Source: Escherichia coli O157:H7 | GTDB lineage: Bacteria > Pseudomonadota > Gammaproteobacteria > Enterobacterales > Enterobacteriaceae | NCBI RefSeq assembly: GCF_013167455.1 | Contig: NZ_CP038328.1 | DNA: 64,000 nucleotides | Direction: 5' to 3' (one strand) | Shown: positions 18,603 through 21,516 of the stretch, piece by piece | How the letters are laid out: the number at the start of each line of letters is the position of its first letter | How positions within the stretch are numbered: the first letter of the stretch is position 1 | The notes under the pieces: model-generated | What the model was told of the DNA's origin: nothing | Seen by the model: the letters and a program-made list of their open reading frames with translations, nothing else | The model's database searches: none | Program-made: the position numbers and the translations under genes

Positions 18603-19247
18603 TTATTCTTTTGAAGTAAAATCATTTACCAGTTCACTTAAAGCTCTCTTTTGTTCATCATCATACAGAGATTGAATCCGGAATTTAATCTCTTCTGCAA
18701 CCAGTCTTGCATCGGGCTCATAAAATATTTTTGTTATTCGCTGTTTCTGATGTTCAGGCTGGTCTTCCATATTTCGTAAAACCAGATGAAATAATATATC
18801 ATAAAGTGCGCAATGCCATGAATAACCATCATTGGTTAAAATAAGCTCCCAAACCCGCTCCTGCTCGGCAATAAGCTGCAGAACAAAGGACTCAACCTGT
18901 TCTGTTTGTTCGGGGGCAACACGGTATAGCGGAGCAATCACAGCAAAAGATAGTTCATTTAACCAGGATTCCGCTTCCTTCTCGCTCCTGAACGGTGGAC
19001 AGTTTTGTATTCTTCGTTCGTATTCACGGGTAATCTGCTCCAGAATATCCTCCGGCGGTGTCAGCCACTTATTCCTGAGCAATACACTGGTTGATGGATG
19101 ACAGCTGGCTATTTCAGCAATAATTTCACGTAATGTCTCCGGGCTGAACTTCTTCAGCTGATTGTAGTGCTCCCGGGTAAAACCATGTTCATCGCATAAA
19201 AGTTGCCATGTCATTGATATACTGTTTGCCATTCCTTGCTTCATCAT
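18603..19247 (-). CDS. Hypothetical protein (214 aa), co-oriented with the IbrAB-like genes
   Basis: ORF only; no motif recognised. Confidence 0.45.
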   Translation of the reverse strand: MMKQGMANSISMTWQLLCDEHGFTREHYNQLKKFSPETLREIIAEIASCHPSTSVLLRNKWLTPPEDILEQITREYERRIQNCPPFRSEKEAESWLNELSFAVIAPLYRVAPEQTEQVESFVLQLIAEQERVWELILTNDGYSWHCALYDILFHLVLRNMEDQPEHQKQRITKIFYEPDARLVAEEIKFRIQSLYDDEQKRALSELVNDFTSKE

Positions 19248-19267
19248 TAATACCTGTTACCTGAATA

Positions 19268-19576
19268 TCAACAGACCGGTGTACCTTTTCTGAATACCTC
19301 CCCGGACGGAGTGGCAATCCCCATTCGCCTCAGCGTGGCATCTGCAGCTTTCGCCACCTCGCTGATATCCAGCGTTTCAGGTAGCGGCGGGGACGATATC
19401 TGCGCCAGACAATAATTCCGGCGCAACAACAACCACTCCCGTTGTGCTTCTGTACATTCAACATTTCCCATAACAAAAAGCCAGCGGTCAGAAGCTCTGC
19501 GCCAGCAACCAGCAGCCTCCAGTTTCTGCGCAACCATGTCTTCCACAACTTCCGGGGTACTCTTTTTCCTGCTCAA
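19268..19576 (-). CDS. Hypothetical protein (102 aa)
   Basis: ORF only; 21-bp gap to the next ORF suggests co-transcription. Confidence 0.4.
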   Translation of the reverse strand: MSRKKSTPEVVEDMVAQKLEAAGCWRRASDRWLFVMGNVECTEAQREWLLLRRNYCLAQISSPPLPETLDISEVAKAADATLRRMGIATPSGEVFRKGTPVC

Positions 19577-19615
19577 AACATTAACTCACTGAAATAATAT
19601 ACATATCTGACGGTC

Positions 19616-20254
19616 TCAGCGAACCGTCCATGCCGGGCTGAAATCCTCTTCCTGAAACAGCTCCGTCAGCCCGCTAATCTGTTTCAATCTGAGAACTTCA
19701 TCCTGGTCCATACCCAGCTCCGTACCAATGCGTTCATTCGTCCAGCCCAGGCGCGACAGGTCCCTGACAATATCAGACATTGAGGTTATCTGATGTTTGC
19801 CCCTGGCCCGGTTATGTCGGATGGTCGCAGCAATACGTGAGGCCTGTCCCTTTCTCTCCGGATTAATACAGACCACCGGCAGCCAGCCCTTCAGACGTTT
19901 TCCCGTACCTGCTTCCCTGCCCAGCACCTGGCGATGAAAACCATCCACCACCAGGTAATGGTTCTTTTCCTCAGACACCACCACCGGTTGTGTGAAACCA
20001 TCTTTCTCCAGTGACTGCTTCAGCAGTTTCTTCTCACCCGGCGCCATGACATTAGGATTGTAATCATTGGCCACCACCTCATCTGCTTTTACCCACAGCA
20101 CACAGTCCACTGGCTCATGTGCAAAAGGACTGACTTCATGAAGCACTCTGCGCAGGTGATTAAGGGCCTGTATGGTCTCTTCTTCTGGTCGTTCCTGGCT
20201 GAAGTACTGACGAATCATGTTGCCAATTATCTCCGGTGTCACAGAATCCCCCAT
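19616..20254 (-). CDS. ParB-like nuclease-domain protein (IbrB-like)
   Basis: 212 aa; ParB/Srx-type motif LVVDGFHR; overlaps the upstream PAPS-reductase-like gene. Confidence 0.75.
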   Translation of the reverse strand: MGDSVTPEIIGNMIRQYFSQERPEEETIQALNHLRRVLHEVSPFAHEPVDCVLWVKADEVVANDYNPNVMAPGEKKLLKQSLEKDGFTQPVVVSEEKNHYLVVDGFHRQVLGREAGTGKRLKGWLPVVCINPERKGQASRIAATIRHNRARGKHQITSMSDIVRDLSRLGWTNERIGTELGMDQDEVLRLKQISGLTELFQEEDFSPAWTVR

Positions 20255-21516
20255 TCCTTCCTCCTTTCTTTCATACGCTGCAGATAACGTTCATAGTGCC
20301 GGGGTTTGTTCGGACTGAAGGAGAGGGGCCGGCACCAGAAATCATTCTTTATAAGTGTCTTACAGATACGCCGCCAGGACGGAATATCCCGGCTCCCCAG
20401 GTCATTCTCCTGTTCATCCGGGATGTCATCCGGGAAGCCCCGCGTCTGATACCAGCGCAGGTAGACAGCAATTTTATTACGGTAATGTTCTGCCGTTCTT
20501 TCCGGCATCACATCCAGCAGGAACATCGCATAGCTGCGCCAGGTATGATGGGCTGGTTTTGATATACGTTTACGCAGGGCAAAATAGGCACCGCTTTCAT
20601 TGGCATAAAGCGCCCCGCTGGCAGCGCCTGACACCCGCTCACACATCCTGGCCCAGGTTTCCGGCTCCAGAACATGGTAAAGCCACAGCCCCTTACGTTG
20701 TTCAGGACCAAAAGGTTCACAGACACGCATGTTGCGTAACGGCACGTCGGCACGGTACATCAGGTCATACAGAGGATTGTAAATGGCACAAGCTCTGGCG
20801 TTATATATCCAGATATCGCGGGCTTTCCAGTCATACAACGGATACATGGTGTAATAAAACCCTTCAGGCGATGCCGTGGTCCAGGGCTTATCATCGGCAT
20901 ATCTCAGTTTGCGCTGAGACACCAGCCCCATAAAGCGATTGAGGGATTCATCCGCACGAACACCGGTCAGCACTGCCACTCCACACCGGTTACCGGCAAA
21001 CCAGGAAGAAAATGCCGGAACAAATTCTTCAAACGTCATGGCATACCGGAAAAAGGGAAAATATGTCATATCCGTAATGGCCTCTTCCGGTGGCTGGCGA
21101 ACCCAGGTCACTCCTGGCTCCCAGCATATCCACTCCGGCTGAAACTGCGAGACGCCGTTTACCGTGGTCAGGGGAAGTGCCACCCAGTAAAAGGTTTCCG
21201 TCACATCATGGTACATTTCCCGCATCTTCTGAATATGTTCAATGGTGCACCGATACTGGGCCTCCCAGTCAATGAACAGAACAGAGAAATGACGTTTTCT
21301 CCTGCGGGCCACCTCTGCCACAAGATGGAAAAGCACGGTGGAATCCTTTCCACCTGAAAAAGACAGACATACCGACGGAAATGTTTCAAAAATCCACTCA
21401 ATGCGGGCGATTGCAGCACGCAAAACATTTTCTCCGGTAAGGATTTTTTCGGTTAAAAGCGTATCACTCATTTTCCTGGCTTTATGTCGAATAATTCTGT
21501 TTATACATTCAGGCAA
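20239..21516 (-). CDS. PAPS-reductase-like (PP-loop ATP pyrophosphatase) protein (IbrA-like)
   Basis: 425 aa; PP-loop SFSGGKDS near N-terminus. Confidence 0.75.
   Translation of the reverse strand: MPECINRIIRHKARKMSDTLLTEKILTGENVLRAAIARIEWIFETFPSVCLSFSGGKDSTVLFHLVAEVARRRKRHFSVLFIDWEAQYRCTIEHIQKMREMYHDVTETFYWVALPLTTVNGVSQFQPEWICWEPGVTWVRQPPEEAITDMTYFPFFRYAMTFEEFVPAFSSWFAGNRCGVAVLTGVRADESLNRFMGLVSQRKLRYADDKPWTTASPEGFYYTMYPLYDWKARDIWIYNARACAIYNPLYDLMYRADVPLRNMRVCEPFGPEQRKGLWLYHVLEPETWARMCERVSGAASGALYANESGAYFALRKRISKPAHHTWRSYAMFLLDVMPERTAEHYRNKIAVYLRWYQTRGFPDDIPDEQENDLGSRDIPSWRRICKTLIKNDFWCRPLSFSPNKPRHYERYLQRMKERRKEWGIL

Follow-up and report, generated by a model that had tools for sequence, protein, structure and literature searches.

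A possible gene-activation cassette of nested modules: the ibrA–ibrB–pchD–ECs1387 block of Escherichia coli O157:H7

What is the function of a PAPS (3'-phosphoadenosine 5'-phosphosulfate) reductase-like gene and a ParB-like gene that overlap each other and are followed by two short genes in an Escherichia coli O157:H7 island? We examined this question in a stretch of 64,000 nt of contig NZ_CP038328.1 (RefSeq assembly GCF_013167455.1), called the window here, in which these four genes are ibrA–ibrB–pchD–ECs1387 (ECs1390–ECs1387) of the island SpLE1 (OI-43/48). The locus was rated as already known, because the locus and its gene names stand in the literature: it has been catalogued in the tag order ECs1387–1390 with ECs1388 as pchD (PMC1890555), and pchD was named in 2004. 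As for its function, the explanation that we favor, with somewhat less than even confidence, is that the four-gene locus is a horizontally acquired gene-activation cassette made of nested modules.

As shown in Table 1, the four genes are co-oriented and closely spaced on the minus strand, as described in an initial annotation made from the sequence and its open reading frames (ORFs) alone. The frame with the SFSGGKDS PP-loop (ibrA) does overlap the frame with DGFHR (ibrB), the two sharing 16 nt. The gap between ibrB and pchD is 39 nt from the TTG start of pchD and 69–78 nt with a later start, and pchD is separated from the 214-aa gene by 20 nt. A scan found no terminator-like site in the gaps between the four genes, while 4 such sites fall within coding sequence, and the operon contains no notable parS-like repeats, structured RNAs or inverted repeats. 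Pairwise dN/dS against homologues from three other contexts was 0.07–0.11 for ibrA, 0.05–0.08 for ibrB, 0.15–0.39 for pchD and 0.21–0.60 for the 214-aa gene, showing that pchD and the 214-aa gene evolve much faster than ibrA and ibrB. Because of this purifying selection and the recurrence of the block in ~970 complete E. coli genomes, the four ORFs are real genes and not chance ORFs. The GC content was 0.51–0.54 in ibrA, ibrB and pchD and 0.42 in the 214-aa gene, a contrast that agrees with a composite origin.

The coupling of ibrA to ibrB was examined in a survey with one genome per species, which gave 79 ibrA loci from Enterobacterales, Opitutales, Alphaproteobacteria, Lachnospiraceae and other Firmicutes, Bacteroides, Helicobacter, Fibrobacteria, Lentisphaeria, Armatimonadota and one Heimdallarchaeote. 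An IbrB-like ORF lay directly 3' of ibrA or overlapped it in 79 of the 79 loci, and a PerC-like or 214-like ORF was present in none. Of the enterobacterial loci, 16–17 represent a single syntenic chromosomal locus, recognized by its AhpC/AhpF-, LysR-type-regulator- and aminotransferase-like genes and identified as ybdN/ybdM. When a third conserved partner of ibrAB was sought in the 79 loci, only an upstream SNF2-like helicase recurred, and no downstream gene was conserved. This helicase (410–480 aa, SNF2-type, phrog_62) overlaps the ibrA start in 15 distant non-enterobacterial loci and is related to the helicase domains of DpdE, ZorD and DrmD, which suggests a helicase–IbrA–IbrB three-gene module in prophage-like regions.

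When clustered at 90% identity, the IbrAB family comprises more than 6,000 protein clusters; it occurs in many gut bacteria, in phages and in ~40% of complete E. coli genomes. Relatives of IbrA were found in 224 phage records, in early/replication regions marked by helicases, Sak4 and HNH genes; in the early region of Streptococcus phage PY1, for example, a helicase is followed by IbrA and then IbrB. The IbrA of phage PhiR5_2 is 90.8% identical to that of SpLE1, and the pair is annotated there as 'co-activator of prophage gene expression'. IbrA and IbrB of the window are 91% and 87% identical, respectively, to their counterparts in an antA/antB island next to ynfF; we take this island to be the IbrAB island of strain ECOR-9. 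In that island (E. coli G6/7) and in PhiR5_2, two antA/antB antirepressor genes precede ibrAB, and ibrAB is convergent with genes for a Panacea-domain protein and a very large LPD38-domain protein. These identities, together with the Pfam and PHROGs matches, the overlap and the RefSeq names, bear out the naming of the pair as IbrA/IbrB in the initial annotation. In ECOR-9, ibrA and ibrB together reportedly activate silent, prophage-borne eib genes in trans, as described by Sandt, Hopper and Hill in 2002 (J Bacteriol 184:3640, cited in PMC7649339), and the same authors reportedly noted homologues in SpLE1 of strain Sakai and in two O-islands of EDL933.

In IbrA, Pfam found a split PAPS_reduct match and DUF3440 (E = 7e-24), and PHROGs found phrog_2302 (E = 9e-82). 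Across 13 diverse homologues, in an alignment extending to a Streptococcus phage protein of 38% identity, the SFSGGKDS PP-loop and the motifs DWE, RxDES and YDW were invariant, and C370 and C380 were the only invariant cysteines. IbrA is far under the NCBIfam cut-offs for CysH and CysD (for CysH, 34 bits where 154 are required and 33 where 254 are), and the nearest candidate for the C-terminal catalytic Cys of CysH (ECGLH) is RVCEPFG, which is replaced in one phage homologue. In the AlphaFold2 (AF2) model, the N-terminal domain was confident and resembled the folds of FAD synthase, CysH/APS reductase, CysD, TtuA and LarE. The C-terminal half was poor, with a predicted local distance difference test (pLDDT) score <50 at residues 251–302; reading the nature of DUF3440 from this model was dropped, as only the PAPS-reductase core was informative. 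Judged by these sequence features, IbrA may be read as an adenylating or nucleotidyl-transfer enzyme and not as a sulfate-pathway reductase. In line with the view of IbrAB biochemistry in the initial annotation, a structure-database search found no close PDB relative of IbrA or IbrB, and no mechanistic study was found in literature on ibrAB, DUF3440, ybdN/ybdM or PAPS reductase with ParB.

IbrB has a divergent ParB/Srx fold, matching phrog_2159 'ParB-like' at 1.8e-82, Pfam ParB_N at just 0.016 and the PDB ParB entry 4umk at E = 0.004, and PHROGs gave a helix-turn-helix (HTH)-like match at its C-terminus. The motifs NxYNPN, VDG[FY]HR, TIRHNRARGxH and LGMxxDE[VI]LRLKQ were nearly invariant across 78 IbrB homologues from many phyla, and the IbrB of this locus contains VVDGFHR. 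It does not belong to the partition ParB proteins: DGFHR stands in place of GERR, no ParA is present in the neighboring annotation, notable inverted repeats are absent, and the scores for the Noc/ParB models of NCBIfam are far below cut-off. The N-domain of IbrB matches the N-terminal part of the phrog_498 profile, annotated as DNA methyltransferase (4.9e-8). ParB-like N-domains are found fused to DNA methyltransferases, and both points would suggest that the N-domain of IbrB is a DNA-targeting module.

The extent of the cassette in Escherichia was determined in 5,426 complete E. coli genomes. A match was found in 2,165 of them, and ~970 carried all four genes at roughly 92–100% identity, in a homology block reaching from about the ibrA start codon to ~20 nt short of the end of the 214-aa gene. 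Another ~1,200 genomes have ibrAB only, at ~88% identity, and here the block stops exactly at the ibrB stop codon; these ibrAB-only sites include ones beside cobUST by a TonB-dependent receptor, on a plasmid by the hyxB autotransporter, by a fimbrial operon, and in the antA/antB island mentioned above. Among 1,066 genomes with pchD or the 214-aa gene, 1,033 had both, with ibrAB upstream in ~94% of these (970/1,033). In one other Escherichia species, all four genes occur in a different island, together with an integrase and a TraI_2 relaxase. A PerC–214 pair adjacent to a type VI secretion system (T6SS) was rejected as an independent context, since blastn showed that it keeps the 3' part of ibrB and so derives from the four-gene cassette by deletion. 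Flanking paralogues of the 214-aa gene were rejected as well: in EC31, a 214-aa hypothetical gene stands upstream of ibrA and shows no similarity by BLASTP, so the equal length is a coincidence.

Homology with the other E. coli cassettes ends at about the ibrA start codon, which leaves the intergenic region 5' of ibrA outside the conserved cassette. Four of the 12 sigma-70-like matches, which are consensus matches only, fall in this region on the minus strand, and the predicted ibrA promoter in the SpLE1 context probably lies there. From the gene distribution and composition we therefore see nested modules, namely a universal ibrAB core and a four-gene cassette that is specific to Escherichia and, while moving as a unit, brings along no conserved promoter; PerC–214 may be a loosely linked pair within them. 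The suggestion of the initial annotation that the two downstream genes are additional IbrAB components fails outside Escherichia, given the 79 loci, and also faces the E. coli genomes with ibrAB alone and the occurrence of the 214-aa family apart from ibrAB. The transcripts of ibrB, perC and the next hypothetical gene (consecutive tags) have been reported to rise together after adherence to colonic epithelial cells (PMC7649339), and the O157 lineage II strains tested were reported to lack the operon (PMC1890555).

The two downstream genes had both been taken as unknown, and the 102-aa protein as free of recognizable motifs. The latter view was wrong. The product matches Pfam PerC PF06069 over its full length (E = 2.9e-37, model positions 2–89 of 90), and its RefSeq name is PerC family transcriptional regulator; being a full-length PerC-family protein, the 102-aa ORF is pchD (ECs1388), a gene already named and studied experimentally. 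Five pch genes have been named in O157:H7; PchD is the product of one of them and forms group 2 by itself (PMC5931665, PMC6265319, PMC1890555). Since it was reported not to activate ler, with little effect on curli or biofilm, pchD is a PerC-family member by sequence without the classic LEE1 (locus of enterocyte effacement) activity, and strains carrying pchB or pchD plasmids showed restricted growth at higher induction with isopropyl β-D-thiogalactopyranoside (IPTG) (PMC5931665, PMC6265319). The start codon candidates of pchD are TTG 19576 (102 aa), GTG 19546 (92 aa) and ATG 19537 (RefSeq, 89 aa). Because the RefSeq ATG reads ACG in an Escherichia sp. homologue, whose gene begins at the conserved GTG, the conserved start is probably GTG 19546. 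The lengths of 425 and 102 aa first given for ibrA and pchD are thus those of the longest TTG-started ORFs, while the RefSeq ibrA has 410 aa and pchD probably 92 aa.

The 214-aa protein (ECs1387), by contrast with the 102-aa protein, did turn out to have no recognizable motif, with no match in Pfam, NCBIfam, PADLOC or PHROG. It is all-helical, its family is confined to Enterobacterales, and it is a true orphan. A profile search in 1.84 billion sequences reached the N-terminal ~150 residues of the ~460-aa DUF6880/SpnT proteins, its distant relatives (E = 3e-10 to 1e-9); as the 214-aa sequence itself has no Pfam match, it carries a homologous domain and is not a member of the DUF6880/SpnT family (PF21810). 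Members of the 214-aa family without ibrAB were found directly after the T6SS gene vasL (52–55% identity), adjoining IS66, in a P4-like element and after a Crp-like gene. No relative was found in viral contigs, and those in plasmid records came from E. coli only.

A Yokenella regensburgei metagenome-assembled genome (5374-6917 of its stretch) contains a PRiA4_ORF3 gene and a 214-like gene that precedes a PerC gene and overlaps it by 4 nt. All three are downstream of a 1,953-aa DUF4011–AAA_11/12–MTES_1575–DUF3320 superfamily 1 (SF1) helicase-nuclease. This is an independent pairing of PerC with the 214-aa family, and here too an SF1 helicase–nuclease stands upstream. The DUF6880/SpnT gene of Dickeya chrysanthemi lies in an island with YjcZ/RdcB-like and patatin genes, a PIN toxin and a type I restriction–modification (RM) system. 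SpLE1 also carries a YjcZ/RdcB–patatin pair, ~6.5 kb from the cassette beyond cah (flanking-stretch 1510-5863), accompanied by a dynamin-family gene that was not seen in the Dickeya stretch.

These results allow a working model of the cassette. Its core would be the obligate IbrA–IbrB pair. IbrB, with its ParB/Srx-like NTP-binding domain and HTH, would target DNA, and IbrA, with its PP-loop ATP-pyrophosphatase domain and DUF3440, may catalyze an ATP-dependent adenylation-type reaction whose substrate is DNA or a partner bound to it, so that the two jointly switch on silent prophage or island genes, such as, reportedly, eib in ECOR-9. Escherichia would have added pchD, a small PerC-family activator whose target is not LEE, and a fast-evolving helical protein akin to the N-terminus of SpnT/DUF6880, and the four genes would be transcribed as one unit from whichever promoter stands upstream. 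The reading as gene activation draws on the invariant motifs of IbrA, the DNA-binder features of IbrB and its phrog_498 match, the regulatory nature of PerC and the co-induction on adherence. PerC/Pch proteins are known to activate horizontally acquired genes (PMC5931665, PMC6265319).

Several points weigh against a gene-activation cassette. The activation of eib, the only functional evidence on IbrAB, comes from a single study, that of 2002, and may be indirect, for example through prophage induction. Phages and prophages of Firmicutes, Bacteroidota, Actinobacteria and archaea carry IbrAB, frequently directly behind an SNF2-type helicase and amid early/replication genes, a spread that points to a general DNA-level function and not specifically to virulence-gene regulation. 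PchD showed no clear regulatory phenotype (PMC5931665, PMC6265319). The 214-aa gene may be a mere passenger because of its deviant GC content and fast evolution, and the co-transcription of the four genes is inferred from their spacing and co-regulation. A bolder version is that IbrA–IbrB is a universal mobile-element machine whose hitherto undescribed ATP-dependent chemistry on DNA or chromatin proteins reprograms transcription, with PchD and the 214-aa protein as a dedicated partner pair that directs or reads it; we regard this as rather improbable. If this partner-pair idea were true, the orphan regulator PchD would receive its first function. More generally, if IbrAB is a DNA-directed enzyme that controls horizontally acquired genes, eib activation would be explained and PchD would have a role. 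This would also bear on virulence-gene regulation in enterohemorrhagic E. coli (EHEC), because the operon is induced on epithelial contact and was reported absent from the tested O157 lineage II strains (PMC1890555).

Other explanations must be weighed against this one. The locus could be a DNA-modification module for defence or anti-defence, in which, much as in Dnd/Ssp or BREX type 4, IbrA would modify the backbone or the bases of DNA onto which IbrB has loaded. The modification would mark the element's DNA or hamper invaders, with gene activation as a side effect. A defence or DNA-modification role had been raised in the initial annotation, and we consider it unlikely. In its favor, IbrA shares a superfamily with DndC, SspD and BrxP, and ParB/Srx proteins (DndB, DpdB) accompany DNA-modification systems (PMC12839542). 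However, the PADLOC matches of IbrA are partial or weak. The match to BrxP (~780 aa, PAPS reductase and DUF4007) at 9.3e-8 joins residues 35–113 with model positions 117–197 of 779, which is ~80 residues around the PP-loop, and the two DndC models gave sub-threshold scores of E = 2e-4 and 1.2e-3 with no significant single stretch; no PADLOC model matches IbrB. The DndC-type Cys set is not conserved in IbrA, with its two invariant Cys. Within ±12 kb no Dnd, Ssp, BREX or restriction partner is annotated (DndA cysteine desulfurase, DndD/E, SspABC, PglZ, BrxC/L), so that the pair belongs neither to Dnd/Ssp nor to BREX type 4 by these signs. The match of the IbrB N-domain to phrog_498 with its methyltransferase annotation would fit DNA modification, as would the DpdE/ZorD/DrmD-like SNF2 helicase directly upstream in the 15 distant loci and the variable region in which the E. 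coli cassette sits, which is rich in defence-like genes (SF1 helicase–DUF2726, NERD–UvrD, type I RM with SIR2, and TerB-N/ATPase/DEAD); yet the pair mostly stands alone, including at the conserved ybdN/ybdM locus by ahpCF in many Enterobacteriaceae.

The phage records point in another direction, namely that IbrAB is an early phage or island function in replication or prophage switching (cross-induction), so that eib activation would be late-gene read-through of induced prophages and the SpLE1 cassette a leftover. IbrA relatives do lie in early/replication regions of the 224 phage records, ibrAB does follow two antirepressor genes in PhiR5_2 and in the ynfF-side island, and the eib genes are said to be prophage-borne. 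Over-expression of SpnT, a relative of the 214-aa protein, disturbs nucleoids and replication, as cited in PMC11064533. SpLE1, on the other hand, has the integrase as its sole phage gene (PMC5931665), the cassette has stayed whole under purifying selection in ~970 genomes, many of them outside prophages, and phage records nearly lack the pchD-type PerC just as viral contigs lack the 214-aa family. We hold this account to be rather doubtful. That the genes form no single unit at all, ibrAB simply standing beside an unrelated pchD–ECs1387 pair or decaying passengers, is very improbable. The deviant GC of the 214-aa gene, the ~1,200 genomes with ibrAB alone, the several contexts of the 214-aa family by itself and the lack of the extra genes in the 79 distant loci would fit such a chance neighborhood, but a sharp-bordered four-gene block is seen again in different islands and in a second Escherichia species, ibrAB stands upstream in most pchD–214 genomes, dN/dS is <1 for all four genes, and the genes are co-regulated on host-cell contact (PMC7649339).

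The surroundings of the cassette in the window were also inspected. Immediately upstream of ibrA, at 21972-24652 on the minus strand, lies a gene for a 722-aa SF1 helicase (AAA_11/AAA_12) that ends in a DUF2726 restriction-endonuclease-like domain. It partially matches the helicase part of Mokosh MkoA/MkoC in PADLOC, and it overlaps by 4 nt an upstream 171-aa ORF that has no PADLOC match; the two look like a two-gene defence-like module. The 171-aa ORF was considered as a paralogue of the 214-aa gene and rejected as unrelated. Farther upstream, a 377-aa 'POTRA/HecB-like' ORF (24893-26026, minus strand) ends in a fragment of vasL, a T6SS gene, especially at 24927-25054, and this fragment has 97% nucleotide identity to the intact vasL of another E. 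coli. The ibrAB–pchD–214 cassette of other strains lies at the decayed end of a T6SS cluster, and the stretch from vasL to ibrA is variable cargo. On the other side, a patch of insertion sequence (IS) debris at 16600-18300 separates the cassette from the YeeP-like GTPase/Cah autotransporter genes; it consists of IS66 TnpA and a truncated TnpB, an IS3-family integrase-core fragment and a frameshifted HTH transposase fragment.

Table 1. Genes of the ibrA–ibrB–pchD–ECs1387 block and the adjoining 5' region, in window coordinates
Feature	Position	Strand	Remarks
ibrA	20239..21471	minus	RefSeq ATG start, 410 aa; longest ORF 21516..20239, TTG start, 425 aa
ibrB	19616..20254	minus	phrog_2159; weak Pfam ParB_N; 87% identity to ynfF-side IbrB
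pchD (ECs1388), small PerC-family regulator	19268..19576	minus	longest ORF; PF06069; RefSeq name
214-aa gene (ECs1387)	18603..19247	minus	
Intergenic region 5' of ibrA	21472..21971		500 bp, AT-rich, GC 0.35

This analysis makes modest additions to a known locus: the ibrA–ibrB coupling in every one of the 79 loci across domains of life, the IbrB motif set including TIRHNRARGxH, the nested modules with their borders, the Yokenella PerC–214 pairing, the link of the 214-aa protein to SpnT/DUF6880 and the probable GTG start of pchD. When compared with known systems, Dnd/Ssp and BREX type 4 share the enzyme superfamily of IbrA, also paired with a ParB/Srx-like protein, and are a plausible analogy for ATP-dependent chemistry on DNA. 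DndC, SspD and BrxP resemble IbrA partially, at the level of the PP-loop, and have another Cys signature, while IbrB differs from the DndB-type ParB by DGFHR and a unique TIRHNRARGxH. VirB of Shigella and KorB of RK2 are precedents for ParB-fold proteins that act as transcription regulators of horizontally acquired genes and not in partition; they keep the CTP-binding GERR-type motif and have no enzyme partner, whereas IbrB has DGFHR and is always coupled to IbrA. SpnT/DUF6880 proteins (Serratia TnTIR; Klebsiella, Dickeya and E. coli) are homologous to the 214-aa protein over their N-terminal ~150 residues, and the 214-aa protein is without their C-terminal two-thirds, a TPR-like part; the SpnT phenotypes cited in PMC11064533 are those of over-expression. 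PerC of enteropathogenic E. coli (EPEC) and PchA/B/C of EHEC share the full-length PF06069 with pchD, which is the pch gene embedded in an ibrAB operon, whereas the pchABC genes are, to our knowledge, prophage-borne and do not adjoin ibrAB. PchABC and PchE differ from PchD in function too, PchD leaving ler/LEE1 inactive and curli and biofilm little affected (PMC5931665, PMC6265319).

YbdN/YbdM of K-12 and other Enterobacteriaceae is a paralogous PAPS_reduct+DUF3440/ParB-like pair with the same overlap and ~59–62% identity, which differs in being chromosomal and syntenic by ahpCF, ybdO and ybdL, in its vertical inheritance and in having no PerC or 214-aa gene. In the ECOR-9-type island and in PhiR5_2, ibrAB comes after antirepressor genes and has no pchD or 214-aa gene downstream, and we know of no eib targets carried by O157:H7. 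The two-gene architecture, the frame overlap and the domains of IbrA/IbrB in ECOR-9 are the same as those of the pair in SpLE1.

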